Source of the DNA: Dehalococcoidia bacterium
GTDB taxonomy: Bacteria > Chloroflexota > Dehalococcoidia > Bin125
Length of the DNA stretch: 64,000 nt
Direction: 5' to 3'
NCBI GenBank assembly: GCA_965203775.1
Contig: OZ241913.1
Location: forward strand, 1,081,390-1,145,389
Shown here: positions 4,833 through 60,535 of the stretch, piece by piece
How positions within the stretch are numbered: the stretch's first letter is position 1
Layout of the letters: every line of letters starts with the position of its first letter
The notes under the pieces: generated by a model
Told to the model about the DNA's origin: nothing
What the model saw: only the letters and a program-made list of their open reading frames with translations
Databases searched by the model: none
Position numbers and translations under genes: made by a program

Positions 4833-5870
4833 ATGCGTGACGGAATCGACGCCGCCCTCCACATAGTGCATCGAAACGGCCCCGAATACGGCCCCGGCGC
4901 CTCGAACCATGCGCCGATGGCGATCGAGGCGATGACCGCAATGGGGCGCGGCGGCGGCATCATTCCTTGGCTGGAGGCCTACCGCGCAGAGCTGGACGAA
5001 GCCCCGCGCAGCGTCGCCCCAATCGCGCCCGACGAGTGGCGCGAAGCCCTTTCCGATCCAACCCGCGTCACCGATTGGATCGCCTTTTTCGACCGCGAGA
5101 TCGACCAACTTGGCTGGCGCGAAGCGGTCGCCTTGTGGGTTCCCCGCCTCGCGCCCGCGCTGATCTCCCGCGCGGCCCACGGACTAATCCGAACCACCCA
5201 CGCCGCGCGCAGCCTGACCAACGCCGAAACAGCGCCGCGCTTGCACGAACTCGCCCAGGGCCTGGGCTACTGGGCTTCCACCTGGCAAACGCTGCCCGGC
5301 GAGCCCGCCGCGTTTGCCGCTCCGCGCGCGCCGTCGCAGGCCATGCAAGGCGTTCAGCGCTTGCACGAACCCGGCTTCGTCAGCCAGGGCTTGATCTGGC
5401 AGACCATGCTGCGAATGCGCGAACAACCCAACTTCGCCGATACCATCAACCTGGCCGCGCCGGGCGAAAGCGTATCGGCGTTTCTGTCCAATCTCACCCA
5501 AACCGCCGCGCACTGGTACATGAGCGACCGCACGGTACCGTTCGTGTTCGTCCACACCGTAACCGCGCCGAGCGCGTTGCGCTTTGTTACACCGTATCTC
5601 TCGGACGCCAATGCGCGGCTGGCCGCCCGTTACGCCTGGCAAGCCTGCGCCGCCATGTACGCCTGGTACATGCTCGAAGAGCCGAACCCTGCCTACGATA
5701 CCGACGCCGAACTGCCCGGGCGGGACGACCTGATCGACCGCGCAATCCACGCCGCCGGCCCGCACGCAATCAAATTCACCGAAGCCTGCCTGCGCGAGTA
5801 CGAACTCAACCCCAACCCAATCTATCTGCATGCCGCCCACGACGCCACGGAGCGGATCGGCGACGGCTAA
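4833..5870 (+). CDS. hypothetical protein (345 aa), possibly DUF4243/questin-oxidase-like
   Basis: Long ORF with non-repetitive composition. Family call is from memory only. Confidence 0.45.
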   Translation: MRDGIDAALHIVHRNGPEYGPGASNHAPMAIEAMTAMGRGGGIIPWLEAYRAELDEAPRSVAPIAPDEWREALSDPTRVTDWIAFFDREIDQLGWREAVALWVPRLAPALISRAAHGLIRTTHAARSLTNAETAPRLHELAQGLGYWASTWQTLPGEPAAFAAPRAPSQAMQGVQRLHEPGFVSQGLIWQTMLRMREQPNFADTINLAAPGESVSAFLSNLTQTAAHWYMSDRTVPFVFVHTVTAPSALRFVTPYLSDANARLAARYAWQACAAMYAWYMLEEPNPAYDTDAELPGRDDLIDRAIHAAGPHAIKFTEACLREYELNPNPIYLHAAHDATERIGDG

Positions 5871-5899
5871 ATGCGTAGAACGTGAACAGCCCCAAGACC

Positions 5900-6800
5900 T
5901 GTTCACACTAATCACGCCCTCCACCCCTCCCTCCGTCATTCCTGCGCAGGCAGGAACCCAGGCGACCACCAGCGCCTGCGCTCGCCACCGGTATCTCGCC
6001 ACGCCCACCACCCCCCCAACACCCACCCCTTCCCCAATTCATCCCTCCCCCCTTCCAGGGGGGAGGTGAGGAGGGGGGTGGGCAGCCACGCCAACGCACC
6101 AAGCGCACCCAGCCCCAATCCCGACGCCACCCCTCCGTCGCACCCGCCCCAACCGTCATACCCCCGCCCCCTCTGTCACTCCTGCGCCCTCTTCCGTCAT
6201 TCCTGCGCAGGCAGGAACCCAGGCGACCACCAGCGCCTGCGCTCGCCACCGGTATCTCGTCACGCCCACCACCCAGCCAACACCCACCCCTTCCCCAATT
6301 CATCCCTCCCCCCTACTAGGGGGGAGGTGAGGAGGGGGGTGGGCAGCCACAAGCCAACGCACCAAACGCGCCCTGCCCCGATCCCTACCCCACACCTCCA
6401 TCGCCCCCGCCCCAACCGTCATACCCGCGCCCCTCTGTCACTCCTGCGCCCCCCTCCGTCATTCCTGCGCAGGCAGGAACCACGCGACCCCCAACCTACC
6501 CCCAAATCCACCCCCCACACGCATCCCTCCTCACACCCCCCAACACCCACCCCTTCCCCAATTCATCCCTCCCCCCCTACCAGGGGGGAGGTGAGGTGGG
6601 GGGTGAGAAGCCACGAGCCAACGCCCCAAGCGCACCCAGCCCCAATCCCTACGCCACACCTCCATCGCCCCCGCCCCCTCCGTCATCCTTGCACCTCCTC
6701 CGCCGCACCCGCCCCCTTCCGTCATTCCTGCCCCCTCCGTCATTCCTGCGCCCCCTTCGTCATTCCTGCGCAGGCAGGAACGGAAGGAAAGAGCGCAAAC
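5900..6800. repeat. tandem triplication (about 260 bp unit) of composite REP-like element (module A + module B)
   Basis: Three near-identical units starting near 5930, 6190 and 6450. Each holds GTCATTCCTGCGCAGGCAGGAAC and CCCTTCCCCAATTCATCCCTCCCCCC..GGGGGGAGGTGAGG. Confidence 0.9.
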
Positions 6801-11837: not shown

Positions 11838-11976
11838 CCCCACCCCCACCGCCACCCCCGCACAGGCAGGAACCCCACCGTCATTCCTGCGCCCCCCACC
11901 GTCATTCCTGCGCAGGCAGGAACCCGCGCACCCACCCCGCGCACCCACCCTCCGCCACCCCTGCGCCCCCCCACCG

Positions 11977-13000
11977 TCATTCCTGCGCAGGCAGGAATGT
12001 GGAGTCAGCTTGCAAATGCAACAGTTGGTTGTGGAGCACTTCGGCGGGGGTCTGGTAGTCGAGGCACTTGCGGGGGGTGTTGTTGGCGGCGCGGATGACG
12101 GCGTGGAGCGCGGCGGCGGAGAGCGCGTTGAGGTCGGTGTTGCGGTGCAGGCGGCGGCGCAGCCGGCCGATCGCGTTCTCCACGCCGCCCTTCTGCCAGG
12201 GCGAATGCGGGTCGCAGAAGAACGTCTCGATGCCCAGGTCGTGGAGCCGGTGATGGCGGACGAACTCGGAGCCGTTGTCGAAGGTCGCGCTGCGCCGGAG
12301 GGCCGGCGGGAGGCGCCGGAACAGCCCGCGCAGGACGCGGCTGAGCAGCTCGGCGGCCTTGCTCGGCAGAGCCGCGGCGAGCAGCGCGCGGGAGCGGCGC
12401 TCCTGCAGCACGAGCAGCGGCGGGCGCCCCTGGCCGAAGCTCATCAGGTCCACCTCCCAGTGGCCGTAGACCAGCCGCGCGTCGGCCTCGGGCGGGCGCT
12501 CGCTGAGCGGGCGGCGCTCCTGCAGGTAATCGGTCGAGCCGCGCGCGCCGCGCGTGCGGCTGTAGCCGCGCTTGACCCGCCCGCGGGGCAGATAGCGGGC
12601 GAAGCGGTAGTCCTTGGTGCGGGCGATCTGGGCGTGGATGAAGCGGTAGATGCTCTCGGGCGAGATCACATGCCGCCCGGCTTCGCGTTTGAGCCGTCCG
12701 GCGACCTGCTGGGGCGAGAGGCCGGCGGCGAGCATGTTCAGCACCTGCTCGCGCAGTTCGGCGTCGCGCTCCAGCCGCAAGCCGCGGAAGCCCAGTCATG
12801 CAGTGGGCGCGGGTTTGCTGCTGGGCGTAGTCCGGGTCGTAGCCGCCGTCGGCGCGCGCGTTGCGCTTCAACTCTCGAGTAATCGTCGCTGGCGCGCGAT
12901 CCAGAGTTGCCGCGATTTGCCGCGCGGAGCGGCCCTCGGCGTGTAGTCGGGCCAGCCGCCAGCGCTCCTCGCGGCTGAGCTGCGTGTGCGTTCGGGCCAT
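11977..13000 (-). pseudogene. IS30-family transposase, frameshifted (HTH N-terminus in one frame, DDE core in another)
   Basis: N-terminal MARTHTQLSREERWRLARLHAEGRSARQIAATLDRAPATITRELKRN in frame 12005..13000. DDE core (HWEVDLM, FDNGSEF, CDPHSPWQKGGVENAIGRLRR) in frame 11977..12780. Frames switch near 12780-12800. Confidence 0.7.
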
Positions 13001-13440
13001 CGCTCCACCTCCAACATCCGTTGCACCCCAAGCGCCAACTTAGCGAACCCAGACGACTCCAGGGCCGTTCACGCTAAGCGCGCCCACCACCCGCCCCTTC
13101 CCCAATTCATCCCTCCCCCCTTCCAGGGGGGAGGTTAGGTGGGGGGTGGGAGGCCCCGAGTGTCCACCAGCGGCCGAGCCGCAGCCCGCACCCTCCAAGA
13201 CGCATCCACACTCCCTTCACCCCCGCGCCCCTCTTCCGCCACCCCCGCGCCCCCCTCTCCGTCATTCCTGCGCAGGCAGGAACCACCCACCCCCTTCCCC
13301 AATTCATCCCTCCCCCCTTTTAGGGGGGAGGTTAGGTGGGGGGTGGGAGGCCCCGAGCGTCCACCAGCGGCCGAGCGGCAGCCCGCGCCCTCCAAGGCGC
13401 ATCCACACCCCCGCTCCCCCCAGCTATCACACAGGCGCCC

Positions 13441-13522
13441 CACTGGTGTAAAGTGACAACCGTGAACCACACCGCCAACCTCCCGACCGCCGCCCAACGC
13501 GCCCGCCGCGCGGCAGCGGCGC
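13441..13522 (+). promoter_or_regulatory. conserved leader (about 80 bp) shared by the three RCC1-like genes, candidate -10 TAAAGT
   Basis: Near-identical to 34347-34431. Related to 48741-48821 (TGGTGTAGAGT variant). Confidence 0.35.
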
Positions 13523-15310
13523 TTGCCCGATCGGGGGGGGGGGGGGGATAAATTCCTCCCGATCGCCCTAGCGATCGCCGCGCTCCTACTCGCCGCCCTG
13601 ACCCTCGCTCAAGCCGCCACGCCCACCTCAACCAGCCGCTACCTCGCGCTCGACGCCGGCGGCGAGCATCAATGCACGCTCCGAGCCGACGGCGCAATCC
13701 GCTGCTGGGGCGGCAACTCCGCCGAGCTGCGCGATGTTCCGGAGGGGCGCTACGCCGCCGTCAGCGCCGGGGCTTGGCACAACTGCGCAATTCGGCGGGG
13801 GAGCGGGGCGGTCGTCTGTTGGGGCGGCGACTCGAACGCGCCTGACGGCGCGTTCAGCGAGATCGCCGTCGGCTGGCAGTTCGCCTGCGGCGTGCGCGAA
13901 ACGGGCGAGCTTGAGTGCTGGGGAACCAGCAGCTTCGGCCGCAGCGTGCTCGACTACGGGCAGGCCGAGCCGCCGGAGGGGGAGTTCAGCGCGGTTAGCG
14001 CGGGCTATCTGCACGCCTGCGGGCTGCGGACGACGGGAGAAGTTGCCTGTTGGGGGCGCGCCAACCTTGGGCGCACTGATGCGCCCGAGGGAGTCTTCAC
14101 GCAGGTGAGCGCGGGCACGACGCACTCCTGCGCGCTGCGCGAGAGTGGCGCGGTGGAGTGCTGGGGTCTGAACAACTTCGGGCAGTTGGATGCGCCGTCG
14201 GGCGTCTTCACTCAAGTGAGCGCCGGCGCGTGGCACTCCTGCGGGTTGCGCGAATCGGGGGTCATCGAATGCTGGGGGGATGATCGCTATGGGCAGTCCA
14301 ACGCCCCGTCCGGGCGCTACCTCGCTGTGAGCGCGGGAACGCGCCATTCCTGCGCCCTAAGCCGCGCGAGTGCTCGCTGCTGGGGCGGGCAGGATGATCG
14401 CCTGCTCGAGCTGATCGCGGGGCTCTCCCCGACAAGCGCCCCCCGGACCGTCGCTGCTCCCTCAATCCCTGATGAGGACGGCGCAACACCGGACCCGCCG
14501 ACGCCCACGCCGACATCCACGACATTCACCGCTGTCAGCGCGGGCGGGCGGCACACTTGCGCTTTGAAGAGCACCGGGGCGATCGACTGCTGGGGCGCGA
14601 ACGCATACGGCCAGAGCACGGATCCGACGGGCACATTCACCGCCGTCAGCGCGGGCATTTGGCATACTTGCGCCGTGACCAGCGCAGGTACGATCTCCTG
14701 CTGGGGGTTGAGCACGGAGCAACGGACCAACGCGCCGTCGGGCAGCTTTACGGCGGTCGGAGCCGGCGACCAACACAGCTGCGGCCTGCGCAGCACCGGG
14801 GCGGTCGAATGCTGGGGCAACAATCTGCATGGGCAAAGCAACGATCCGACAGGCAGCTTTACAGCGATCAGCGTCGGCACGAATCACAGCTGCGGCCTGC
14901 TGAGCAGCGGCGCGCTCTCGTGTTGGGGGCACAGCGGCAGCAATCGGCTCAACGCGCCGTCGGGCAGCTTCAGCGCGGTCAGCGCCGGCGGGCAGCACAG
15001 TTGCGCCATCACCAGTGCCGGCGCAATCGACTGCTGGGGGTACGGTGCCAACGGGCGAGCCGATGACCAGAGCGGCAATTTCAGCGTGGTGAGCGTGGGC
15101 GACGGGCACAGCTGCGCCGTGACTAGCGCGGGAGCGATCTCGTGCTGGGGACTGGATACTCGGCGCCAAGTGCGCGATGCGCCCTCCTCAGGCACGTTCA
15201 CGGCGGTCAGCGCGGGCCTCGATCACACCTGCGGCATCAAGGCCGACGGCACGATCTCCTGTTGGGGCCGAAACATCGAAGACCAGGCACCGGCGACGCG
15301 CTCGCCCTGA
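13523..15310 (+). CDS. secreted RCC1/BLIP-II-like repeat protein (two beta-propeller domains joined by a PT-rich linker), paralog 1. G15 tract at 13533-13547 inside codons 5-9
   Basis: TTG start. MPDRGGGGDK then signal-peptide-like IALAIAALLLAALTLAQA. Repeated CWG..G(Q/R)...P.G.F..VSAG..H.C motifs about every 50 aa. Confidence 0.7.
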   Translation: MPDRGGGGDKFLPIALAIAALLLAALTLAQAATPTSTSRYLALDAGGEHQCTLRADGAIRCWGGNSAELRDVPEGRYAAVSAGAWHNCAIRRGSGAVVCWGGDSNAPDGAFSEIAVGWQFACGVRETGELECWGTSSFGRSVLDYGQAEPPEGEFSAVSAGYLHACGLRTTGEVACWGRANLGRTDAPEGVFTQVSAGTTHSCALRESGAVECWGLNNFGQLDAPSGVFTQVSAGAWHSCGLRESGVIECWGDDRYGQSNAPSGRYLAVSAGTRHSCALSRASARCWGGQDDRLLELIAGLSPTSAPRTVAAPSIPDEDGATPDPPTPTPTSTTFTAVSAGGRHTCALKSTGAIDCWGANAYGQSTDPTGTFTAVSAGIWHTCAVTSAGTISCWGLSTEQRTNAPSGSFTAVGAGDQHSCGLRSTGAVECWGNNLHGQSNDPTGSFTAISVGTNHSCGLLSSGALSCWGHSGSNRLNAPSGSFSAVSAGGQHSCAITSAGAIDCWGYGANGRADDQSGNFSVVSVGDGHSCAVTSAGAISCWGLDTRRQVRDAPSSGTFTAVSAGLDHTCGIKADGTISCWGRNIEDQAPATRSP

Positions 15311-15354
15311 GCGGGTTCCTGCCTGCGCAGGAATGACGAAAGCGTGAACAGCCC

Positions 15355-16362
15355 CTACCGAATCGCCCCCGTCAACGCCCGCAGCCCACGCCTCACATTC
15401 TGCGTCGCATCGATCACCGCCGTCGCCTCATAGCCCGAATGCACCATGCAGTCCACGCACTTCGGGTTCCCGCTCGCCACCCCGTAATTCTCCCACTCCG
15501 TCTCCTCGATCAACTCCCGGAACGTCTCCGCGTACCCCTCGTCCATCAGGTAGCACGGACGCTGCCAGCCGAACACCGTCCGCGTCGGATTCCCCCACGG
15601 CGTGCAGTCGTACTCGATCTCCCCCTTGAGAAAATCGAGAAACAGCCGCGAATGGTTGAACGTCCAGCGCTCCGGCGCGTCATCCAGAATCTCGCGGAAC
15701 AACTCCTTCGTCTGATTCCGCGCCAGAAAATGCTCCTGATCCGGCGCCTTCTCATACGGATAGCCCGGCGAGATCATCAGCCCGTCCACGCCCAACTCCG
15801 TCAGACGCTCGAACATCCCCCGAATCCGCTCCGGGTTCGCGCCCAGGAAAAACGTGCTGTTCGTCGTCACCCGAAAGCCGCGCTCCTTCGCCGCCGAAAT
15901 CGCGCGAATCGCCACATCCCACACCCCGTCGCGGCAGACCGACGCATCGTGATCCGCCTCCAGCCCGTCCACATGCACCGAGAATGTCAGATACGGGCTC
16001 GGCTCGAACTCATCCAGCTTCCGCTCCAGCAGCAGCGCGTTGGTGCAGAGATAGACGAACTTGCGCCGCTCGACGAAGCCCCGCGTGATCTCCCCGATCT
16101 CGTTGTGAATCAGCGGCTCGCCTCCCGCAATCGAGACCACCGGCGCGCCGCACTCCTCGATCGCCGCCCAGCACTCCTGCGGCGACAGCCGCCGACGCAA
16201 AATCTCCGTCGGATGCTGAATCTTGCCGCAGCCCGCGCACTCCAGATTGCACTGCAGCAGCGGCTCCAGCATCAGCACCAGCGGGTAGCGCTCCACCCCC
16301 CGCACGCGCTGCCCCAGCACATACTTCCCGACCTCAAACGACTGCCGCAGCGGAATGCCCAC
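15355..16362 (-). CDS. hpnH: hopanoid biosynthesis-associated radical SAM protein HpnH (adenosylhopane synthase)
   Basis: YPLVLMLEPLLQCNLECAGCGKIQ radical-SAM CxxxCxxC and HpnH-like length. GTG start at 16360-16362 chosen because the upstream 34 codons are encoded by a module-A repeat. Confidence 0.7.
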   Translation of the reverse strand: MGIPLRQSFEVGKYVLGQRVRGVERYPLVLMLEPLLQCNLECAGCGKIQHPTEILRRRLSPQECWAAIEECGAPVVSIAGGEPLIHNEIGEITRGFVERRKFVYLCTNALLLERKLDEFEPSPYLTFSVHVDGLEADHDASVCRDGVWDVAIRAISAAKERGFRVTTNSTFFLGANPERIRGMFERLTELGVDGLMISPGYPYEKAPDQEHFLARNQTKELFREILDDAPERWTFNHSRLFLDFLKGEIEYDCTPWGNPTRTVFGWQRPCYLMDEGYAETFRELIEETEWENYGVASGNPKCVDCMVHSGYEATAVIDATQNVRRGLRALTGAIR

Positions 16363-16389: not shown

Positions 16390-16625
16390 CAAAGCCACAC
16401 TACAGCATCCCGCCCCCCAACCGTCATTCCCGCGCAGCCAGGAACCCGCGCCCCCTCTCGTCATTCCTGCGCAGGCAGGAACCCACCACCGTCATTCCTG
16501 CGCCCCCTCTCGTCATTCCTGCGCAGGCAGGAACCCACCACCGTCATACCCACTCCCACCACCGTCATACCCGCGCCCCCTCTCGTCATTCCTGCGCAGG
16601 CAGGAACCACCCGCCCTAAGCCCGA
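16390..16625. repeat. REP-like module-A array (5 copies with 7-21 bp spacers)
   Basis: GTCATTCCTGCGCAGGCAGGAAC repeated with near-identical short spacers. Confidence 0.9.
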
Positions 16626-19470: not shown

Positions 19471-19559
19471 AATCTCGGCCTCACGATCGGCCAACCAAAC
19501 GCCAGCCCGGCGCAGCGCTTCAGGCAAACTACTCACGCCCGCCACACTAAGCCCTGTCC

Positions 19560-19875
19560 ACACTTCCGTCACACCCGCGCCCCCTCCGTCATTCCTGCGC
19601 AGGCAGGAACCCGCGCCCCTCCCCGTCATTCCTGCGCAGGCAGGAACCCGCGCCCCTCTCGTCACACCTGCGCAGGCAGGAACCCGCACCCCTCCCCGTC
19701 ACACCCGCGCAGGCAGGAACCCGCACCCCTCCCCGTCACACCCGCGCAGGCAGGAACCCGCACCCCCTCCGCCATCCCAGCCCCCCCTTCCGTCATTCCT
19801 GCGTAGGCAGGAACCCGCACCCCCTCCGTCACCCCCGCACCCCTCCCCGTCATTCCTGCGCAGGCAGGAACACCG
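19560..19875. repeat. REP-like module-A minisatellite (7 copies, about 41 bp period)
   Basis: GTCAT(T/A)CC(T/C)GCGCAGGCAGGAACCCGC(G/A)CCCCTCCCC repeated. Confidence 0.9.
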
Positions 19876-24527: not shown

Positions 24528-24681
24528 CCCCCCAACCATCATTCCTGCGCAGGCAGGAACCCGCGCCCCCTCTCCGTCATTCCTGCGCAGGCAGGAACCT
24601 GCCACCCCCTCCCGTCATTCCTGCGCAGGCAGGAACCCGCGCCCCCTCTCCGTCATTCCTGCGCAGGCAGGAACCCACGCC

Positions 24682-25199: not shown

Positions 25200-25745
25200 A
25201 TCACTCACAGTCGCACCAGTGATTCGCCCACCCCCTCCCCAACCGTCATTCCTGCGCCCCCCATTCCGTCATTCCTGCGCAGGCAGGAACCCAACTCTCC
25301 CCCACACTCCGCACCCACCCCCCTCCCCAATTCATCCCTCCCCCCTTCCAGGGGGGAGGTTAGGTGGGGGGTGGGAGCCCCGAGCAACCACCAGCCCCCA
25401 CTCACACCACCGCCACCCCCCTCCCCCATCCGCCATCCCCGCGCCCTCCCAACCGTCATCCCTGCGCAGGCAGGAACCCTGCTCTCCCCGACACTCCGCA
25501 CCCACCCCCTTCCCCAATTCATCCCTCCCCCCTACCAGGGGGGAGGTTAGGTGGGGGGTGGGAGCCCCGAGCAACCACCAGCCCCCACTCACACCACCGC
25601 CCCCCTCCCCCAACCGCCATCCCCGCGCCCCCCAACCGCCATCCTCATCCGCCATCCCCGCGCCCTCCCAACCGTCATCCCTGCGCCCCCCAACCGTCAT
25701 TCCTGCGCAGGCAGGAACCGCGCAGAAACACCAGCACCCCAACCC
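25200..25745. repeat. composite REP-like array (modules A and B, multiple copies)
   Basis: Two A+B units plus an extra A copy. Confidence 0.9.
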
Positions 25746-28688: not shown

Positions 28689-28838
28689 GAATGCTCCATC
28701 ACAGGACCCGCGTTGGACCCACGTAGCGCCCAAGCTAACAGCGCGCCCGCAGATCGCCATCGCCGCGCAGAGCAACGGCGGGCGGTGGGCGCAGGAATGA
28801 CGGAAGGGGCGCGAGGGTGAGGGAAGTGTGAACAGGGC

Positions 28839-29759
28839 TTAGACCGGCTCGCCGATTAGGTAGCGGCCTACTGCTTGCTCGAACTCGCGGGTTTCTGGCT
28901 CGCTGAGATCGCGGTAGGGGGGGCGTGCGTGGGTTAGCGGCAGGCCGCTGGTGAAGGCGAGCAGCTGCTTCAGCGCGCCGACTTTGGGGAATGAGTTCAG
29001 GATTGCGTGCAGCTCGTTCAGCTGGCGCTGGGGGCGCTCCGCGTCGCCGCCGTTGCGGTGCGCGTACTGGATCGTGCTGACCAGCGCCGGCACCGCGTTG
29101 GCCAGGCCCGACACCCCGCCCACGCAGCCCACGCCGTAGAGCGCGGCGTGCGCCTGATCCGCCCCCGCCATCACGCGGAACTCGCTGCCCGGGCCGCTTT
29201 CGGGTACCAGCTCGAGATAGCGGCGGGTGCGCTCCGCGTCGCCCGACGAGTCCTTGATCCCCGCCAGCAGATCGCCGTGCAGCTCCAGCAGCGCCAGCAG
29301 CACCTCGTCCGGGATGTCGAGCCCGGCCTGGGGCGGGATGTTGTAGAGCAGCGCCTTTGCGCCGCCCGGCAGCGACTCGAGCACCGTCGAAAACCAGTTG
29401 ACCAGCCCCTGCGCCTCGATGTTTTTGAAGAAGTAGGGCGGCAGCAGCGCGACGGCGTGCGCGCCGGCGTCGAGCGCCTCGTTGGCCGCGCGGATCGTGT
29501 CCGGCAGCGAGACCATCGTCGCGCCCGCCACGACCGTCATCCCGCCCGCGGCAGCGGCGACCGCCGCAATCAGCCGGCGGCGCTCCTCCAGCCCCACCGA
29601 CGGGCCCTCGCCGTTGGTGCCCAGCGTGAGCACCCCGTCGATCCCGAAGCCGCGCAGCCATTCGAGGTGACCGGCTACCCACTCCAGATCCAGCTCCGCG
29701 CCGTTGCGCGTAAACGGCGTCACCTGCGCGACCATCAGACCGTCCAGATTGAGCGTCAT
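28839..29759 (-). CDS. DapA/NAL family lyase (dihydrodipicolinate synthase-like)
   Basis: VAQVTPF ... GTNGE motifs. ATG at 29757-29759. Confidence 0.7.
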   Translation of the reverse strand: MTLNLDGLMVAQVTPFTRNGAELDLEWVAGHLEWLRGFGIDGVLTLGTNGEGPSVGLEERRRLIAAVAAAAGGMTVVAGATMVSLPDTIRAANEALDAGAHAVALLPPYFFKNIEAQGLVNWFSTVLESLPGGAKALLYNIPPQAGLDIPDEVLLALLELHGDLLAGIKDSSGDAERTRRYLELVPESGPGSEFRVMAGADQAHAALYGVGCVGGVSGLANAVPALVSTIQYAHRNGGDAERPQRQLNELHAILNSFPKVGALKQLLAFTSGLPLTHARPPYRDLSEPETREFEQAVGRYLIGEPV

Positions 29760-29846
29760 TGTCGCCTCCGCCCCCGCAGCGTAGCGGCGCGGCGCCCACA
29801 CTCCGTCTGTGCTCTGCTTGCGTTCGGCCTACAGTCCGCAGCAGCG

Positions 29847-31160
29847 ATGACGCGGCTCTACATCACCTCCGCGACCGGCGCGCTGAGCGCCGCCGACGCT
29901 CCCGTAGGCGGCGGCGTGGCCGTGCTCGAAGCGCTGCTGCCCCAGCTCGAGCGCGAGGCGATCGACTACACGCTGCTCACGCCCGGCTCCGTGGACGCGG
30001 TCGCCGGCCGCCGCCGCACGCTGGCCGTCCCCACCCTGCGCGGCGGGGACGCCGAGCGGCTGTTGCGGCTGGGCGAGCGCGACTACGCCCGCTTCGCGCT
30101 CGAGTGGCAGGCGGCGCTCAACCGCTTCTTCGCCGAGGTTCCCGCCGATGGCGCGGTGGTGCTGGCCAACGATGTCAGCGAGGGGCCGCCGTTTCGCGCC
30201 CTGGCGCGGCGCGGCTTTCGCCAGATCGTCCTCTTCCACGTGGTCGTCGCCGAGTTCTTCGCCTGCCGCTATCTGCGCTCGCTGCCGATCGGCGCGGCGC
30301 GCGCGGCGGCGCTCTGGCGCGGCGCGGAGCGCCTCGACCTGACCCGCTTCGCGCCCGACATCGCGCGGCTGGTCTGGCACAAAGAAGGCGAGGCCGCGCG
30401 CTACGCGGACGCGCTGGTGACGCCCTCCGCGCCGCTCGCCGCCTCCCTCGCAGCCTGCTACCCGCAGAGCGATGTTGCCCGCCGCTCGCACACCATCGAG
30501 TGGGGCGTAATCGGCGAGCCCAATCCGGGGCGCCGCGATCGCCGCGCGGCGGCCCTGGCCGCGGTCGGCGCGGACCGCAACCGCATGCAGCTGCTCACCC
30601 TCAGCCGCATCTCGCCGGAGAAACGGCTCGACCTGCTGCTCGACGCGCTGGCGCTGATCGAGCGCCAGTCGCCCGCGACGGCGCAGCGACTCGAGCTGAC
30701 CATCGCCGGCGCGCCCGCCTACATGGGCGGCGACGCCTACTTCGAGCAGCTGCGCCGCCGGGCGCGGCGCTTGCGCTTCGTCCCCGTGCGCTTCCCCGGC
30801 TACGTCTCCGCGCCGCTCAAGTGGGAGCTGCTGGCCGCCGCCGACCTGCTCTGCTCGCCCTCGCTCTACGAGGCCTACGGACTGACCATCGCCCAGGCGC
30901 TCGCCTCGGGCGCGCCCGTCCTGGCCGCCGACCACGAGGGCGCGCAGGCGATCATCACGCCGGCGACGGGCTGGATCGCCCGCGGGCGCGCGACCAACTT
31001 CGCGGCGGCGATCCGCCGCGCCGCCGCCGCGCACGAGACGGGCGAGCTGCGCGCGATGCGCGAGGCCGCGGCCGCCTGGGGCGCGGCGCACCCGTTCTCG
31101 CACGCCGCGTCGCGCATCATCCAACTCATCCGTACCCTGTCGCGGGAGGTGGCGCCATGA
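29847..31160 (+). CDS. glycosyltransferase family 4 (GT-B, RfaG-like)
   Basis: C-terminal EAYGLTIAQALASGAPVLA GT4 motif. ATG at 29847. Confidence 0.7.
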   Translation: MTRLYITSATGALSAADAPVGGGVAVLEALLPQLEREAIDYTLLTPGSVDAVAGRRRTLAVPTLRGGDAERLLRLGERDYARFALEWQAALNRFFAEVPADGAVVLANDVSEGPPFRALARRGFRQIVLFHVVVAEFFACRYLRSLPIGAARAAALWRGAERLDLTRFAPDIARLVWHKEGEAARYADALVTPSAPLAASLAACYPQSDVARRSHTIEWGVIGEPNPGRRDRRAAALAAVGADRNRMQLLTLSRISPEKRLDLLLDALALIERQSPATAQRLELTIAGAPAYMGGDAYFEQLRRRARRLRFVPVRFPGYVSAPLKWELLAAADLLCSPSLYEAYGLTIAQALASGAPVLAADHEGAQAIITPATGWIARGRATNFAAAIRRAAAAHETGELRAMREAAAAWGAAHPFSHAASRIIQLIRTLSREVAP

Positions 31161-31789
31161 CCAACCAACGCGCCGTGCTGTTCGACTTTGGCGGCGTCCT
31201 GATCCGCATGGACGCCGACGCCTACGACGGAATCGGCGAGCGCTGGAATCTGCCGCCCGGCGCGCTGATCGAGGCCTTCTACACGATCCCCGAGTGGCAC
31301 GCGATCGAGACCGGCGAGGGCAACTGGGAGCGCTGGCAGCGCGGCGTCGAGCAGCGCCTCGCGCCCTGGCTGACCGATCCCGTCGGCGATGTCCAGGCAA
31401 TTCTCGACGCCTGGTACGCGCAGCCCTGGCGCTATCACCTGCCCAACTTCGAGCTCGCCCGCGAATTGCAGGCAAGCGGCTGCAAGATCGGCGTGCTCAG
31501 CAACGCGCCCGACGACTTCCGCGAGACCTTTCTGAGCAGATCGCCGATCGGGATCGAGTGGGATGCGATCGTCGTCTCCGGCGAGGTCGGCATGCGCAAG
31601 CCCGATCCACGCATTTTCCACCTCGCCGCCGATCAGATCGGCGAGCCGCCCGAACGCTGCTTCTTCATCGACGATCTCCAGGAGAACGCCGCCGGCGCGC
31701 GGGCGATCGGGATGCGCGCCTTCCACTTCACCCGCAGCAACTACCGCGCCCTGCGAATCGCGCTGCGCACGGCGGGGATCGACTGCTGA
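31157..31789 (+). CDS. HAD family hydrolase
   Basis: VLFDFGGVL motif I, SN..D motif. ATGA overlap with the glycosyltransferase stop. Confidence 0.7.
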   Translation: MTNQRAVLFDFGGVLIRMDADAYDGIGERWNLPPGALIEAFYTIPEWHAIETGEGNWERWQRGVEQRLAPWLTDPVGDVQAILDAWYAQPWRYHLPNFELARELQASGCKIGVLSNAPDDFRETFLSRSPIGIEWDAIVVSGEVGMRKPDPRIFHLAADQIGEPPERCFFIDDLQENAAGARAIGMRAFHFTRSNYRALRIALRTAGIDC

Positions 31790-31792
31790 GCG

Positions 31793-32596: not shown

Positions 32597-32599
32597 ACG

Positions 32600-32989
32600 C
32601 CGAGCATACGCAGCGCCCGCACCCCACCCGTCATTCCTGCGCAGGCAGGAACCCACGCCTCCCTCTCCGTCATTCCTGCGCAGGCAGGAACCGCACCCCC
32701 TCTCCGTCATTCCCGCGCTCCTCCTCCGTCATTCCTGCGCAGGCAGGAACCCACCCACCCCACCACCCACCCCTTCCCCAATTCATCCCTCCCCCCTTTT
32801 AGGGGGGAGGTTAGGAGGGGGGTGGAAAGCCCCGAGCGTCCACCAGCGGCCGAGCGCGGCAACCCGCACCCACCAAGACGCATCCACACTCCCTTCACCC
32901 TCGCGCCTCCTCTCCGTCATTCCTGCGCAGGCAGGAACCCTCCCACCCCACCACCCACCCCTTCCCCAATTCATCCCTCCCCCCTTTTA
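32600..32989. repeat. composite REP-like array (modules A and B). The last module B is interrupted by the IS5-family insertion
   Basis: Sequence match to other arrays. Confidence 0.85.
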
Positions 32990-34177
32990 GAGACCTTTGA
33001 AAAAGTCGGCTGGCGGGGTTGTTGGGGGCGTTTTAGGGCGCGGGATGGCGCGGTTGGGGCCTTGCGCGGGGGGTTCGGGCGGGTGTTTTTGGGGCTGCGC
33101 GGGCGGGTTGGGCGCACTGCGCCCGGCGGCGGCGAGGCTTAGACTGCGGCCTGCAGCCGCACGAGTTTGCGCAGGTTGAAGGCGAGGCATTTGAGGTAGA
33201 ACTCGAAGCGGTTGCGCTCCAGGCTGTAGTAGCGCGTGGTGCGGTAGCCGTAGCTGCGTTTGAACGTGCCGAAGACCGGCTCGACCTTGCGTCTGGTTCG
33301 CTCCCAGAGCGCGTTCAGTTCGCGCTCCGCCTCCGTCAGCGGGTGGTAGCGGTCGGCCCGTCTGAGGATGCGGCAGTCGATCCGCATCGCCTCCAGCAGT
33401 GCGCGCCGCTCGGCCTTGTCGTAGGCGCGGTCGGCGTGCACCGCCGCCTCGTCGCCGGTCAGCAGCGCCTCGGCGACCTGCGACTCGTTGACGTTGGCCG
33501 GGGTGAAGACGCCGCGGCGGATCAGTTGGGTGTCGGCGTCGACCCCGATGTGGCCTTTGTAGCCGTAGCAGGCGTTCCCGCGGGCGCCGCCCCAGGCGGC
33601 GTCCGGGTCGGTCGGCCCCTGGGCCGACTTGGAGCGCCGCCGCGAGGCCTGCGCCTCGATCAGCGTGGCGTCCATCAGCGTCGCGCGGCCCGGCTCGATG
33701 AACAGCCCCTGCGCCTCCAACTGCTCGTCCAACTCGCGCAGCAGCGCCTCGCCCAGCCCGCGCTGCGCGAACAGCGCGCGGTAACGGCTGATCGTGGAGT
33801 GATCGGGGATCTCCTCGCAGAGGCTCAGCCCCGCGAAGCGGCAGAACGAGGCGCGCTCCCAGAGCATGTCCTCCATCGCCGGGTCGGACAGGTCGCGCCA
33901 CTGCTGCAGCAGACAGATTTTGAGCATGACCAGCGCCGGGTAGGCCTTGCGGCCCATCCGCGAGCCGTGCAGCCCGGCCAGCAGCCGCGCGAAGCGCGTC
34001 CAGTCAATCGCCGCGTGGATCGCCTCCAACTGCGCGTTGCGCCCGCGACGCTCCGGTATCTGCGCCTCGCCGAACGACCCCTGCCTGCGCTCACGCTCCA
34101 TGCCGCACCCCTTTCGCGTCCAACCCACCGCGTTCCCCACAAGAATCGCCGATCCCCCAGAGTTGTGCAAAGGTCTC
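32990..34177 (-). mobile_element. IS5-family insertion sequence (1188 bp) with 10-bp terminal inverted repeats GAGACCTTTG and 5-bp target-site duplication TTTTA
   Basis: Left end GAGACCTTTGAAAAAG, right end CAAAGGTCTC. Flanking TTTTA at 32985-32989 and 34178-34182. Removing the element restores an intact module-B repeat CCCCCCTTTTAGGGGGG. Confidence 0.8.
33139..34170 (-). CDS. IS5-family DDE transposase
   Basis: YGYKGHIGVDADTQLIRRGVFTPANVNESQ ... VEPVFGTFKRSYGY ... FYLKCLAFNLRKL, typical of the IS5 group. Confidence 0.8.
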   Translation of the reverse strand: MHNSGGSAILVGNAVGWTRKGCGMERERRQGSFGEAQIPERRGRNAQLEAIHAAIDWTRFARLLAGLHGSRMGRKAYPALVMLKICLLQQWRDLSDPAMEDMLWERASFCRFAGLSLCEEIPDHSTISRYRALFAQRGLGEALLRELDEQLEAQGLFIEPGRATLMDATLIEAQASRRRSKSAQGPTDPDAAWGGARGNACYGYKGHIGVDADTQLIRRGVFTPANVNESQVAEALLTGDEAAVHADRAYDKAERRALLEAMRIDCRILRRADRYHPLTEAERELNALWERTRRKVEPVFGTFKRSYGYRTTRYYSLERNRFEFYLKCLAFNLRKLVRLQAAV

Positions 34178-34431
34178 TTTTAGGGGGGAGGTTAGGTGGG
34201 GGGTGAGAGGCCCCGAGCGTCCACCAGCGGCCGAGCGCGACAACCCGCACCCTCCAAGACGCATCCACACTCCCGTCATTCCTGCCTCCCCACCGTCATT
34301 CCTGCGCAGGCAGGAACCCGCGACGAGCGCAGCTATGACGAAGGCGCCCCACTGGTGTAAAGTGACAACCGTGAACCACACCGCCAACCCCCAAACCACC
34401 GCCCAACGCGCCGGCCGCGCGTTGGCGGCGC

Positions 34432-36249: not shown

Positions 36250-36419
36250 TCTCAACTCCGTCATAGCTGCGCATGCCGCCTGTGTGGGCGGGGGTGGGAG
36301 AGGGTAGGGGCTTGGGTGCTGTGTTCGGCGAGATACCCGCGGCGGAGCGCGGGTATGACGGATCTTTCTTGCGCGGGTATGACATGGGGGCGCGGGTGCG
36401 ACGGCAGTGTGAACAGGTA

Positions 36420-37520: not shown

Positions 37521-37644
37521 GGCGCCCGCCGTTTCTCTGCGCAACGATAGCGATCTGCGGACGCGCTGTTAGCGTGGGCCCAGCGCAGCCGAGCACGAGC
37601 AAGTCAAAGCGGACACGGCGACGGCAGCCGACTGACTTCGGCCC

Positions 37645-40189: not shown

Positions 40190-41100
40190 TAGGGGCTTTA
40201 GAGGTTGTGCCGCCCCCCGTCACCCCCGCGCCCTCTCCCCGTCATTCCCGCACCCCCTCTCCGACATTCCTGCGCCCCCTCTCCGTCATTCCTGCGCAGG
40301 CAGGAACCCGCAACCTCCCAATCCCCGCCTCACCTCCCCTCTTCCCCAATTCATCCCTCCCCCCTTCCAGGGGGGAGGTTAGGTGGGGGGTGGAACGCCG
40401 CGAGCGCACACCAGTCACGCCCCGCCCCGAAAATCACCCACGCCACCCGCCCCCCCGTCATTCCCGCGCCCGCCCTCCCGTCATCCCCGCGCCTCTCCCG
40501 TCATTCCTGCGCCCCCTCTCCGTCATTCCTGCGCAGGCAGGAACCCGCAACCTCCCACCCCCCGCCTCACCTCCCCTCTTCCCCAATTCATCCCTCCCCC
40601 CTTCCAGGGGGGAGGTGAGGTGGGGGGTGGAACGCCGCGAGCGCACACCAGTCACGCCCCGCCCCGAAATCACCCACGCCACCCACCCCCCGTCATTCCC
40701 GCGCCCGCCCTCCCGTCATCCCCGCACCCCCTCTCCGACATTCCTGCGTCCCTCTTCCGTCATTCCTGCGCAGGCAGGAACCCACCCGCGCCCACCCCCC
40801 ACCTCACCTCCCCTCTTCCCCAATTCATCCCTCCCCCCTCCCAGGGGGGAGGTTAGGTGGGGGGTGGGACGTTGCGAGCGACTACCAGCGATCGTTCGCG
40901 CCCCACTCGCCCACGCTGCGCCTCGACCGCCACGCTGCCATCTCATCCACCGTCATTCCTGCGCAGGCAGGAATCCAGCGCGCCTGCGCTCCATTCCGTC
41001 ATTCCTGCGCAGGCAGGAACCCGCGCCCTCCTCCCCGTCATTCAGGCCACTCTCTTTCCGTCATTCCTGCGCAGGCAGGAACCACCCCACACCCCCACTT
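40190..41100. repeat. composite REP-like array (3-4 A+B units)
   Basis: Repeated units near 40250-40400, 40490-40640, 40730-40870, 40940-41090. Confidence 0.9.
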
Positions 41101-41189
41101 CCCCCAAATCCTGCTACACTCACACTAGAACAGGAGTGCCGAACCATGCCTCTCTCCCCACAACACCGCCGCCCCTCCCTCCACGTCGA

Positions 41190-41300: not shown

Positions 41301-41628
41301 CACCCCAAACCCCAGCAAAACACAGCAAAACCGCAGCCACACCCACCACCCCGACACCCCCAGCGTCAACCTGCGCTGTCAACCCCTCCGACACACCCCG
41401 AACAACCCTGAACAAATCCGAACAACCCTGAACAAACCCGAACACCGCCGAACGCCCCGACCAGATAGGGAGCACCCCCAAATCACCCCCCAACACCCCC
41501 AAAAAAACAAACCCCGAACACCCTCTGCGCCGCCCGCCCGCGCGGTTCCTGCCTGCGCAGGAATGACGGAACGGGGGGCGCAGGGCATGACGGTTGGGGG
41601 GTGGCGGGGAGAGGAGCGTGAACAGGCG

Positions 41629-50642: not shown

Positions 50643-50885
50643 GCGAGGTTCCTGCCTGCGCAGGAATGACGAAGAGGGCGCAGGAATGACGGGAGAGGGC
50701 GCAGGGGTGACGGAGGGGGCGGCAGGAATGACGGAGTGGGTGGCAGGCACGACGGAACGGGAGCGTGCGGGGTTTGAGCGGCGGCAAGCGTGCTTGGTGC
50801 TCGGCGCGGCGAGATACCCGCGGCGAGCGCGGGTATGACGGATCTGGCTGTGCGGGGGCGGCGGATGGCGATGTGCGAGCAGGCC

Positions 50886-55703: not shown

Positions 55704-55785
55704 GGGGCGCGCGGGTTCCTGCCTGCGCAGGAATGACGGGTGAGGGCGTAGCCTGTGCGTGATTGCGGCAGCGGAGGAGTTGGTC

Positions 55786-56649: not shown

Positions 56650-57085
56650 GCCAGTCTACGCGGCCAGCGCGCATGCGGGCGCGCTCACACAAGAGTCTGT
56701 TCACGCATCCCTCAGCCCCACCATCCCCCAACCGCCATTCCTGCGCAGGCAGGAACCCACCATCCACGCGCTTCCGTCATTCCTGCGCAGGCAGGAACCC
56801 GCGCGCCCCTCACCGTCATTCCTGCGCTCTATCCGTCATTCCTGCGCAGGCAGGAACCCGCGCGCCCCTCACCGTCATTCCTGCGCTCTATCCGTCATTC
56901 CTGCGCAGGCAGGAACCCACCCACCCACGCTCCCGTCATTCCTGCGCAGGCAGGAACCCGCGCACCCCCCAACCGTCATTCCTGCGCAGGCAGGAACCCA
57001 CCACCGCTACTCAACTTCCCCCATCCCAAATTCATCCCTCCCCCCTTCCAGGGGGGAGGTTAGGTGGGGGGTGAGACGCCGCGAG
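56650..57085. repeat. composite REP-like array (7 module-A copies + 1 module B) adjacent to tRNA-Lys
   Basis: Sequence match. Confidence 0.9.
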
Positions 57086-57133
57086 CCGACACCACCGGTC
57101 GTGCGCGCCCCGATCCGTCCACACCCTCCCGCC

Positions 57134-60119: not shown

Positions 60120-60535
60120 CCGCCCACGCACACGACCCATCCCTCCCCCCTCTCAGGGGGGAGGTTAGGTGGGGGGTGGGAAGCCACCCACCAGCACCAC
60201 CACCCGCAAGCAACCCCCAAACCCCCACTCCCACCCCCTCCCGCCATACTCACTCTCGCCCCTCCCATCATCCCCGTCCCCCTCCCGCCATACCACTCGT
60301 GCGCCCTCCCATCATCCCCCCTCCTGCCATACCCGCCCCCATCCGTCATTCCTGCGCCCCCCTCCCGTCATTCCTGCGCAGGCAGGAACCACGCGACCAC
60401 TGACATCGCTACGCCCCAACACCCCAACACCCCACTCAAGCCGCATCCACGCCGCCGCTGAACCTCACTGCCGGAACACAACTGCGTTCACTACGTGAGT
60501 TTCTGCCTACGCAGGAATGACGGAAGCGGGCGCAG
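60120..60535. repeat. composite REP-like elements (module B + A, plus an inverted A)
   Basis: Sequence match. Confidence 0.85.

Follow-up and report, generated by a model that had tools for sequence, protein, structure and literature searches.

Repeat arrays in the 64-kb window

The window, by which we mean the whole 64-kb stretch of Dehalococcoidia DNA analysed here, carries two palindromic modules, A and B, at 17 intergenic sites, and all of the arrays built from them are intergenic (Table 1). A previous reading made from the sequence alone (the sequence-only reading) had proposed that palindromic REP-like repeats form intergenic arrays here, and these were found to be real. Module A (GTCATTCCTGCGCAGGCAGGAAC) gave 48 matches at up to 3 mismatches compared with 0.00 expected from shuffles, 35 of them perfect, and the core of module B gave 13 matches compared with 0 expected, or 13-14 copies when one split by an insertion sequence (IS) is counted. 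Modules were present in all 15 coordinate ranges proposed previously, and three more sites came to light at 41545-41567, 36255-36416 (degenerate) and 28786-28835. The arrays sum to 5235 bp, which corresponds to 8.2% of the window, in agreement with the earlier estimate of about 8%, and to approximately 47% of its non-coding DNA.

Tandem Repeats Finder resolved a 261-bp unit repeated 3.1 times at 5932-6731, matching the 260-bp unit previously counted three times at 5900-6800, together with a 237-bp unit (x2.9) at 40213-40888, a 187-bp unit (x2.2) at 25231-25644 and 37-39-bp arrays. The 187-, 237- and 261-bp units are A-B composites, the 261-bp unit of 5899..6781 being made up of an A hairpin, a spacer, a B hairpin, a tail and two to three truncated half-copies, termed h. 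With regard to the flanking genes, 7 of 15 window sites were convergent, 6 tandem and 2 divergent, which amounts to a preference for convergent or unidirectional junctions. The single A at 15315..15351 also brackets the 3' end of an RCC1-repeat gene (13523-15310). The IS that interrupts a B loop has TTTTA on both flanks, is absent from the orthologous site of the Dehalococcoidia MAG OZ241849.1 and was present as one copy only in all of the DNA sampled.

Table 1. Repeat arrays and associated features of the window (A, B, modules; h, truncated half-copy; head, CTGTTCAC motif)
Position	Strand	Composition and context
5899..6781	+	Head (inverted copy at 5882-5889), three 261-bp units, terminal A at 6759-6781
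11873..11998	+	Small array h, A, h, A; convergent genes either side
13065..13400	+	Head-like motif, B (13111), A (13261), B (13308); upstream of RCC1-repeat gene 13523-15310
15315..15351	-	Single A, mRNA sense; head 4 nt past stop of gene 15355-16362
16415..16607	+	Four A with h copies; two - strand genes flank
19554..19871	+	Head, seven A, two h; 37/57-bp periods; two - strand genes flank
24530..24674	+	Four A units, 38-bp period
25235..25718	+	187-bp A-B units (x2.2), h copies, terminal A
28786..28835	-	Truncated h; head 4 nt past stop of gene 28839-29801
32616..32989	+	A, A, h, A, B, A, followed by the left half of a loop-interrupted B hairpin
32990..34178	-	1.19-kb IS in the B loop; DDE_Tnp_1 and DUF772 transposase at 33139-34101
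34179..34345	+	Right half of the split B, tail, h, A (34295); upstream of RCC1-repeat gene 34603-36249
36255..36416	.	Degenerate half-copies, both strands; head 4 nt past stop of gene 36420-37520
40213..41082	+	Largest array: 237-bp (h x3, A, B) units (x2.9), then three more A units
41545..41625	-	Single A, mRNA sense; head 4 nt past stop of DinB-like gene 41629-42105
50648..50880	-	A, four h, degenerate head; between RCC1-repeat gene 48822-50642 and gene 50886-51347
55715..55737	-	Solitary A; two + strand genes flank
56697..57125	+	Head, six A with interleaved h (59/41-bp periods), then B; adjoins tRNA 56573-56646
60135..60521	.	B (60141), degenerate half-copies, A (+, 60367), diverged A (-, 60499)

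The warning that the arrays corrupt open reading frame (ORF) predictions was well founded. At least 16 ORFs of at least 100 aa lie inside arrays, among them one of 354 aa at 40207-41271, and gene starts are over-extended: for the - strand genes at 15355, 18142 and 31793, choosing the longest ORF carries the start 34-71 codons into an array. As for the gene names, the DinB calls held, whereas the supposed HpnH (4833-5870) is Questin-oxidase-like and the supposed IS30 transposase (60495-62120) is a fn3-domain protein. For the annotation of MAGs, such arrays yield many spurious or over-extended ORFs, which the peptides VIPAQAGT, SFLRRQEP and PACAGMT can serve to flag.

Structure and conservation of modules A and B

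Both modules had been outlined as palindromic, which stands, while their boundaries are better drawn otherwise. Module A is laid out as CGTC / ATTCCTGC / GCAG / GCAGGAAC / CC(C/G/A) and forms a 7-bp stem, TTCCTGC/GCAGGAA, closed by a GCAG loop; only seven pairs form because the outermost pair is A.C. Module B has a 9-bp stem (CCTCCCCCC/GGGGGGAGG) capped by a T-NNN-A loop of 5 nt, the whole lying inside an imperfect hairpin of approximately 66 nt. Folded as DNA, module A gave -7.2 kcal/mol (z = -3.0) and module B -20.8 kcal/mol. Module A is followed by CCC or CCG, and module B by TTAGG.

Across 46 window copies and 106 copies from OZ241849.1, the conserved block of module A is exactly CGTCATTCCTGCGCAGGCAGGAACC, over which the information content is about 2 bits before falling in the flanks, the linkers being variable. 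Copies identical over 23-25 nt made up 35 of 48 in the window and most of the 106 in OZ241849.1, and such near-identity beside varying linkers points to purifying selection, very recent spread or strong homogenisation. The linkers between A copies are 14-16 nt long and resemble one another (CCCGCGCCCCCTCTCC), as opposed to the unique spacers of about 26-50 bp of a CRISPR array, which was thus rejected as an identity for these loci.

Module A is assigned to the CGTC-1 family and the NTS/SRM hairpins

On the basis of its sequence features, we assign module A to the CGTC-tagged REPs of family CGTC-1, the type of Neisseria dRS3, and hence to the hairpins known as NTS or Ssn-related motifs (SRMs). 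CGTC-1 repeats are defined by an unpaired CGTC tag, an 8-bp stem starting from A-T, a 4-nt loop and a 3-nt CCA-like tail, and the Neisseria dRS3 has been placed among them (Di Nocera et al. 2013, PMC3733652). Module A has the tag, stem, loop and tail features, although only seven stem pairs form. Like the published family, it carries an unpaired CGTC, a stem that starts A-T-T, a loop of four nucleotides and a short C-rich tail, favours convergent and unidirectional intergenic positions and lacks a RAYT association. It departs from that family in arrangement. CGTC repeats in PMC3733652 are mostly head-to-head dimers, with head-to-tail arrangements called 'negligible', whereas the window copies lie nearly all head-to-tail within arrays; moreover, 5' half-copies are abundant here, and Chloroflexi is not among the five phyla of that survey.

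Ssn nucleases and their hairpin motifs were first described in 2025 (Chenal et al. 2025, PMC11893778), where cutting by Nm SsnA was found to depend on GTC, and its binding on the C that follows the palindrome. The module A block includes both features, GTC 5' of the palindrome and C 3' of it, and ends exactly at the positions needed by Ssn. What most clearly sets module A apart from the NTS consensus CGTCATTCCCGCGMAVGCGGGAATCYRG is a compensatory change of a single stem pair from C:G to T:A, and owing to this change the published SRM pattern, HGTCWYN(0-2)YYVSBRHN(0-5)WNVSBRGN(0-2)RNCYNB, had no match in the window. When only that stem pair was relaxed (V to N, B to N) the same pattern gave 41 matches, 37 on the + strand and 4 on the - strand. 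Altering the stem sequence abolishes the activity of Nm SsnA even if the hairpin is preserved (PMC11893778), so that recognition of the T:A variant would need a matching enzyme.

In other respects the likeness to the Neisseria dRS3/NTS elements (PMC11893778) is close, comprising the CGTCAT tag, the GCAG loop, a near-identical stem and the conserved C after the palindrome, and extends to directional, almost exclusively intergenic copies that cluster around genes encoding proteins of secreted or surface type. The elements described here differ in the T:A pair, in a closing A.C pair (GGAAC rather than GGAAT), in their Chloroflexota host, in their long head-to-tail arrays and in a strong polarity with GC skew. 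Like the Neisseria intergenic mosaic elements (NIMEs), in which dRS3 hairpins are interleaved with RS repeats, they alternate a small conserved hairpin with longer lineage-specific segments in A-B composites, differ between close relatives by whole units and adjoin variable surface-protein genes; unlike NIMEs, they are strictly unidirectional as arrays, and module B, a long G/C hairpin whose loop varies, has a sequence unrelated to theirs.

Dispersal and turnover in a close relative

The window is 95-97% identical to OZ241849.1. Restriction of the elements to this region, as opposed to dispersal along the genome, had been named as what would refute the sequence-only reading. It was not borne out: the exact 23-mer of module A was spread along the whole OZ241849.1 chromosome, in at least 33 separate 8-kb bins from 8 kb to 3.18 Mb. 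At orthologous arrays the outer units are kept while whole internal units differ, and h in one genome corresponds to a full A in the other. For instance, the OZ241849.1 ortholog of array 16415..16607 has an extra A-B-h-h unit, and the internal units of array 19554..19871 are unlike those of its ortholog. The arrays thus gain and lose whole units between close relatives.

The truncated h at 28786..28835 abuts the left junction of an 8.8-kb inversion relative to OZ241849.1. An SRM-mediated origin of this inversion was rejected, as its two ends carry a gene leader duplicated in inverted orientation over 56 bp, and not module A. A phage or mobile origin of the modules was likewise set aside, neither A nor B having any match in viral contigs. 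Outside this lineage, the identical 23-mer is conserved across phyla, and inverted pairs of the motif occur in other phyla.

Array orientation follows GC skew and not gene direction

The modules had been reported in both orientations, which understated a strong bias: 43 copies of module A lie on the + strand and 5 on the - strand, and every oriented B is on the + strand. Over 58 clusters, with the arrays masked, orientation correlated with regional GC skew (Spearman -0.69, p = 2e-9), the coding-strand component of the skew being about 0.007. Along the OZ241849.1 chromosome, A copies were counted by strand as 14:49 versus 39:4 (Fisher p = 1.5e-12), although copy-level p-values overstate significance because copies within an array are not independent. 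The orientation of the arrays therefore follows the strand asymmetry of the chromosome, not the direction of the flanking genes. In the few contexts in which gene direction and skew disagree, the two were near-equal predictors (5 vs 4). Polarity was not significant in other lineages bearing the motif (31 vs 22, p = 0.27), nor in other Dehalococcoidia MAGs, other phyla or metagenome loci. Neither PMC11893778 nor PMC3733652 mentions strand polarity of such repeats.

A terminator or mRNA-stabilising role had been suggested for the modules, and they could accordingly be viewed as RNA elements, that is, 3'-end terminators or stabilising stem-loops. Their enrichment at convergent and unidirectional junctions (7 and 6 of 15 sites), as reported for REPs generally, would fit this role, as would a minority 'head-type' subclass in mRNA sense, in which a CTGTTCACRC motif lies 4 nt past the stop of four window genes; this motif was found at 22 of 124 array starts where about 4% would be expected. 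However, no T/U tract follows A or B, so that no module joins a GC-rich hairpin to a T-run as an intrinsic terminator does, and a terminator scan of the window gave 11 sites against 10.6 expected, none of them at a module. Large arrays in the window stay on the + strand downstream of + and - strand genes alike, and in convergent contexts regional skew predicts orientation in 14 of 16 clusters. At the gathering score Rfam found only a tRNA in the window and gave no family for the modules. A permissive Rfam scan of the largest array returned only sub-threshold, microRNA-precursor-like matches on both strands, as any generic long hairpin would. Seven tandem hairpins or arrays of 870 bp also far exceed the needs of termination. 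Orientation that tracks GC skew and ignores gene direction argues for a replication-linked constraint at the DNA level and against a terminator role, and we regard a mainly RNA-level function as improbable.

Strict strand polarity with GC skew could also be expected if the arrays served chromosome architecture, for example if G-rich GGGGAGGG-like motifs on the complementary strand oriented a translocase towards the terminus. The array linkers contain CCCTCCCC and CCCCTCCC, and the GGGGAGGG-like motifs presumably resemble the E. coli KOPS GGGNAGGG. Against this, the conserved part of the element is the hairpin and not the linker, and polarity could arise in other ways; such a role appears very unlikely.

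The 23-mer is associated with ssn genes in other genomes

Six-frame ORFs were searched with an Ssn profile derived from 120 genuine homologs, an ssn gene being one for a GIY-YIG protein of cd10448 type with a length of about 95-110 aa. In 12 of 120 metagenome loci an ORF matching this profile (E = 1e-20 to 1e-61) adjoins the 23-mer, compared with a rough chance expectation of about 0.2; the 12 loci represent at least seven lineages, including Rhodanobacter/Dyella, and mostly show the layout SRM(+)-ssn-SRM(-). The same layout was seen in Citromicrobium (locus L029), where 17 bp separate the identical 23-mer from a GIY-YIG ORF (PF01541, E = 1.6e-16). The identical 23-mer is thus associated with ssn genes in other genomes.

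No Ssn or GIY-YIG ORF was detected in the 64-kb window, in 264 kb from 33 OZ241849.1 loci or in nine loci from other Dehalococcoidia, a sample of approximately 10% of the genome. Beside the largest array, the small ORFs at 39581-39835 and 39890-40147 were considered as ssn candidates and rejected, the former being LigT-like, the latter weakly SWIM-like and neither of them GIY-YIG. Homology searches for a Dehalococcoidia Ssn returned only Sphingomonadales and Rhodanobacteraceae, a representative search at 50% identity gave 12,624 Ssn family members without taxonomy labels, and the metagenome scan returned no contig of the lineage of the window. Among genomes with more than 200 SRMs, 19% have no Ssn (PMC11893778).

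A link to RAYT/IS200-type transposases had also been suggested, in which case the modules would be REPs or REPINs mobilised by a Y1 transposase encoded elsewhere in the genome. They do resemble REPs, BIMEs and the REPIN-RAYT systems of Gammaproteobacteria as short, high-copy extragenic palindromes in mosaic clusters with an occasional IS in a hairpin loop, and a replication-related orientation bias is known for IS200/IS605-type single-strand transposition (PMC6006769). However, those systems have a GTAG tag, inverted dimers and a Y1 (HUH) transposase, none of which was seen here. The tag is CGTC, and no RAYT gene was found with CGTC repeats at its flanks (PMC3733652); the copies are direct repeats and not the inverted pairs that define REPINs. 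A heuristic phmmer search with two approximate Y1-transposase queries found no credible match in the window or the Dehalococcoidia loci. A weak match beside module A in locus L056 (6268-6597) was discarded, having no Pfam domain and overlapping a real dehydrogenase gene on the other strand. Other genomes have a GIY-YIG gene next to the identical sequence. Overall, we consider the suggested RAYT link hardly credible.

The result of the Ssn search could be read differently, with the arrays as selfish or neutral CGTC relics that have neither a serving enzyme nor a function, change by replication slippage or unequal recombination only and owe their polarity to differences in slippage or deletion between the leading and lagging strands. 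CGTC repeats have been proposed to lack a dedicated enzyme and to be perhaps near extinction (Di Nocera 2013, PMC3733652), many truncated and decayed half-copies are present here, and whole-unit gains and losses between orthologs are what recombination or slippage predicts. This is countered by the sequence identity of most A copies beside varying linkers, by a conserved block that ends at the positions needed by Ssn and by conservation of the same 23-mer across phyla, and relics are in our view an unlikely account. The sequence-only reading as a whole was partly supported.

Discussion

The explanation that we favour, and hold to be probable, is that these loci are SRM-type hairpin arrays under a replication-linked constraint at the DNA level and putative targets of an Ssn nuclease. 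Module A is predicted to fold into a hairpin when single-stranded. Such an SRM hairpin is, in other bacteria, what the small, single-strand-specific GIY-YIG nucleases (Ssn) recognise, and it flanks their genes. In the Dehalococcoidia lineage studied here, a high-GC soil lineage, module A has multiplied to about one site per 4 kb, and its head-to-tail arrays with truncated h and the lineage-specific long hairpin B are the counterpart of the Neisseria mosaic elements, turning over as whole units are gained or lost. The h copies correspond to the full hairpin minus its 3' arm and may have arisen by slippage, for which the simplest route would be between the GCGC of the loop and the GCGC of the linker.

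If Ssn acts on the module A copies of this organism, as we infer, the tagged strand would be the one that it binds and cuts, and this strand is kept on the locally C-rich strand. As a usual rule, the locally C-rich strand is the leading-strand template. The elements thus appear to be constrained as DNA, by the single-stranded state that accompanies replication, and not by what they do as RNA, and their polarity may reflect avoidance of self-cleavage on the lagging-strand template. A more specific proposal is that selection keeps the Ssn-cuttable strand off the single-stranded lagging-strand template, making the arrays a polar, genome-wide 'self-safe' system that is possibly coupled to the control of recombination around phase-variable secreted RCC1-repeat proteins; this we offer tentatively and judge unlikely.

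The same hairpin is present here at extreme density in Chloroflexota, a phylum without earlier reports of CGTC repeats, and in a variant missed by the published SRM pattern, so that current surveys probably undercount these systems. Its polarity offers a testable link between the motif of a single-strand-specific nuclease and replication. If the 'self-safe' proposal were true, it would provide the first indication of a role for SRM/Ssn beyond Neisseria, as well as the first evidence of chromosome strand architecture being shaped by Ssn activity.

Repeat census and dispersal

Module A (GTCATTCCTGCGCAGGCAGGAAC), one of two hairpin repeats in the window, matched 48 times with ≤3 mismatches allowed, 35 times perfectly, where 100 shuffles gave none, and the core of the other, module B, gave 13 matches against 0 expected, with one further copy split by an insertion. 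The repeats described by the sequence-only reading were thus borne out at its sites, and its density of about 8% agreed with the summed array length of 5235 bp (8.2% of the window, or ~47% if only non-coding DNA is counted). That reading was also right in placing copies on both strands, but overlooked a strong bias, with 43 copies of module A on the + strand and 5 on the −, and every oriented copy of module B on +. Also overlooked were the head motif CTGTTCACRC, which marks many array starts, and the h units. These form a third component of 20-22 bp, represent the 5' half of A (CCGTCATTCCTGCGCC...) and stand in tandem ahead of full A. All arrays in the window were intergenic, using genes called with a codon model; Tandem Repeats Finder returned the units in the table and several further arrays at 37-59-bp periods.

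The exact 23-mer core of module A was scanned across 185,579 species genomes. Among the matches listed, Dehalococcoidia (Chloroflexota) MAG chromosomes dominated, foremost OZ241849.1 (3.31 Mb, ~70% GC), to which the window is 94-98% identical across syntenic blocks; the window therefore comes from a close relative. In OZ241849.1 the 23-mer occupied at least 33 separate 8-kb bins spread from 8 kb to 3.18 Mb, so that the repeats are dispersed genome-wide and not restricted to one region, in keeping with the earlier reading. Single exact 23-mers, among the matches listed, came from Planctomycetota, Bacteroidota, Omnitrophota, Zixibacteria, Binatia, Alpha- and Gammaproteobacteria, and these often adjoined sister hairpins of the GTCATTCC...GGAATGAC type. 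At L035 and L042, loci from animal gut Alphaproteobacteria MAGs, the 23-mer adjoins what we take to be a tRNA 5' end on the opposite strand, and a direct repeat of GATGGGGCCAAAAC comes next, an arrangement suggestive of insertion at a tRNA gene with target duplication.

Hairpin structure and family

When folded as single-stranded DNA, module A pairs TTCCTGC with GCAGGAA in a 7-bp stem closed by the loop GCAG (−7.2 kcal/mol, z = −3.0), and module B forms a 9-10-bp stem (CCTCCCCCC/GGGGGGAGG) within a ~66-nt imperfect hairpin (−20.8 kcal/mol). Across 46 window and 106 OZ241849.1 copies, near-maximal conservation of A spans exactly CGTCATTCCTGCGCAGGCAGGAACC and drops in the linkers. Module B, seen nowhere beyond the window and the relative closest to it, has a ~90-nt conserved core and a 5-nt T-NNN-A loop with a variable centre (TTCCA, TCTCA, TTTTA, TACCA, TACTA, TCCCA and TTTCA, differing mostly by C/T).

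REPs have been divided into GTAG-tagged and CGTC-tagged superfamilies (Di Nocera et al. 2013, PMC3733652). In family CGTC-1 of that study, which includes the Neisseria dRS3, the stem starts with A-T, the loop has 4 nt and the tail is CCA-like; the family was reported from five phyla, Chloroflexi not among them, and, it appears, has no transposase of its own. SsnA, a GIY-YIG nuclease of 94 aa, requires single-stranded DNA and the tagged strand to bind and cut NTS (CGTCATTCCCGCGMAVGCGGGAATCYRG), the oriented form of dRS3, the cleavage falling a few nt upstream of the motif; GTC 5' of the palindrome controls cutting and C 3' of it controls binding, and ssn genes across phyla are flanked by NTS-like SRM hairpins (Chenal et al. 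2025, PMC11893778). The main departure of module A from the Neisseria NTS is a compensatory change of a single stem pair, C:G to T:A; the closing pair is also weaker (GGAAC, in the NTS GGAAT). Because of that single C:G to T:A pair the published SRM pattern misses module A, matching nowhere in the window, and 41 times once the two stem-pair positions alone were relaxed. Module A is thus assigned with high confidence to the CGTC-1/NTS-type (SRM) family.

The RAYT (the Y1 transposase of REPs) suggested earlier was found neither in the window nor in the sampled loci, and Rfam held no family matching the hairpins. A CRISPR reading was rejected on the array structure, and a viral origin found no support, with 0 copies in viral contigs. 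The proposed terminator or 3'-end role did not hold in general: no T-run follows an A or B hairpin in the window, where terminator-like sites numbered 11 against 10.6 expected, with 0 at a module. It fits a minority subclass, in which four − strand genes show the stop, 3 nt, the head (exactly 4 nt past the stop codon) and then h/A in mRNA sense, and which supplies most '−' copies in the window. The head precedes 22/124 array starts against ~4% expected.

Association with Ssn

In Citromicrobium (L029), a GIY-YIG ORF (PF01541, E = 1.6e-16) is followed 17 bp downstream by an exact 23-mer and preceded 17 bp upstream by a second T:A-type hairpin, with tags pointing outward. A metagenome 23-mer scan (120 loci, 644 kb), searched with an Ssn profile built from 120 real homologs, gave an Ssn ORF (E = 1e-20 to 1e-61) within a few hundred bp of the 23-mer in 12/120 loci, against a rough chance estimate, made with no computed null, of ~0.2 for a 300-bp single-copy gene. 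These 12 loci, mostly arranged SRM(+)-ssn-SRM(−), cover at least 7 lineages (GC 0.44-0.67), one being Rhodanobacter/Dyella. SRM-derived peptides, including the T:A-type IPACAGMT, also occur in Ssn ORFs over-called in the public protein library. Since the 23-mer stands beside ssn genes in other genomes, module A is a genuine Ssn-associated motif.

The window, 264 kb of OZ241849.1 and nine loci of other Dehalococcoidia MAGs, a sample of ~10% of the genome, yielded no Ssn ORF, and further homolog searches gave proteobacterial sequences only; 19% of SRM-rich genomes are without Ssn (PMC11893778). An Ssn may act on the module A copies of this organism, a reading given moderate confidence.

Array turnover and neighbouring genes

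Orthologous arrays of the window and OZ241849.1 keep their outermost units and flanks and vary in the interior by whole modules. At 16.4 kb OZ241849.1 has one A-B-h-h unit more than the window, unit numbers are unequal in the 19.5-kb and 32.6-kb arrays, and one window h is a full hairpin at the matching place in OZ241849.1. The h sequence is the 38-bp unit minus 16 nt between loop GCGC and linker GCGC, and h copies may originate through hairpin-promoted slippage deletion. The arrays are a NIME-like mosaic (NIME, Neisseria intergenic mosaic element).

Other REARRANGEMENTS in the window were an IS within a module B loop and an 8.8-kb inversion. The IS, the sole copy across all sampled DNA, has terminal inverted repeats GAGACCTTTG and sits exactly in the loop, with TTTTA either side; OZ241849.1 has there an intact module B (loop TACCA) and no IS, and the insertion is therefore recent. 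At the ends of the inversion, which is relative to OZ241849.1, lies not module A but a gene leader duplicated in inverted orientation over 56 bp; in OZ241849.1 this leader is single and stands between two divergent genes.

Secreted RCC1-repeat paralogs have in common a conserved leader, CACTGGTGTAAAGTGACA..GTGAAC, and in each a poly-G directly precedes the signal peptide KFLPIALAIAALLLAALTLAQA. G16 would bring an upstream GTG into frame, which suggests from the sequence that these genes may be phase-variable, poly-G lengths in long-read MAGs being unreliable. Two of the three window genes have module A or half-copies on both sides, tags outward, similar to the Neisseria NTS-gene-NTS arrangement; the third has neither upstream.

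Coordinates of features (window unless a locus or OZ241849.1 is named)
Feature	Position	Strand	Remarks
Tandem unit, 261-bp x3.1	5932-6731
Tandem unit, 187-bp x2.2	25231-25644
Tandem unit, 237-bp x2.9	40213-40888
IS, 1.19 kb	32990-34178	-	DDE_Tnp_1 + DUF772 transposase, 320 aa
Inverted segment	~28785-37579		breakpoints 28724-28784, 37523-37579
Head after stop codons	15351, 28835, 36416, 41625	-
Head at 5' array border	5899, 19554, 56697	+
Head, inverted pair	5882-5906		two copies
RCC1-repeat paralogs	13441-15310, 34350-36249, 48740-50642; L019, L033, L039, L050, L057		PF13540, E ~1e-91 to 1e-93
RCC1-repeat genes, bracketed	13523-15310, 34603-36249
RCC1-repeat gene, none upstream	48822-50642
Poly-G tracts, RCC1	13533-13547 (G15), 34442-34456 (G15), 48832-48849 (G18)		G15-G16 in OZ241849.1
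Other long homopolymers	54290-54303 (G14); L006 7471-7484 (G14); L007 4026-4041 (G16)		L007: inside repeat array, GATC either side
Iteron-like 10-bp direct repeats	41227-41284		TTGACAnnGG x5.6
Iteron-like 10-bp direct repeats	41387-41453		ACCCCGAACA-like x5.9
Strong-skew blocks	1-26000 vs 26000-56000; L006, L007, L043, L044, L048, L057 (OZ241849.1)

The iteron-like sets lie between the largest array and a DinB-like gene, around a short ORF from ~41165.

Orientation and GC skew

The + orientation of the window arrays holds beside +/−, −/− and +/+ neighbour genes. With arrays masked, the tagged strand was the one locally rich in C (Spearman −0.69, p = 2e-9, 58 clusters), a cluster-level statistic being safer than a copy-level one as copies in one array are non-independent. 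The skew is regional and not a coding-strand effect (coding component ~0.007), and is unusually strong, reaching ±0.25 over 8 kb with repeats masked and independent of coding strand; array density is highest in strongly skewed blocks. In OZ241849.1 skew is positive over the first ~1 Mb, where '−' copies prevail, and negative over the remainder, where most copies are '+' (14:49 versus 39:4, Fisher p = 1.5e-12), with exceptions in bins of locally reversed skew. Transcription gives no information on orientation between convergent genes, and in such intergenic regions orientation matched skew in 14/16 clusters; since cases with gene direction and skew in conflict split 5 versus 4, transcription may still contribute in part.

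Other lineages with the motif, in which inverted pairs are frequent, showed no detectable polarity, and neither PMC3733652 nor PMC11893778 discusses it. The kind of repeat is already known; what is new is the lineage, a phylum without an earlier report, the organisation and the polarity, module A being a variant invisible to the published pattern, in polar head-to-tail arrays and unusually dense. The leading strand is usually G-rich and the tagged strand here is C-rich, and the Ssn-cleavable strand would therefore lie on the leading-strand template, off the strand with the greatest single-stranded exposure. The polarity may reflect avoidance of self-cleavage by Ssn.
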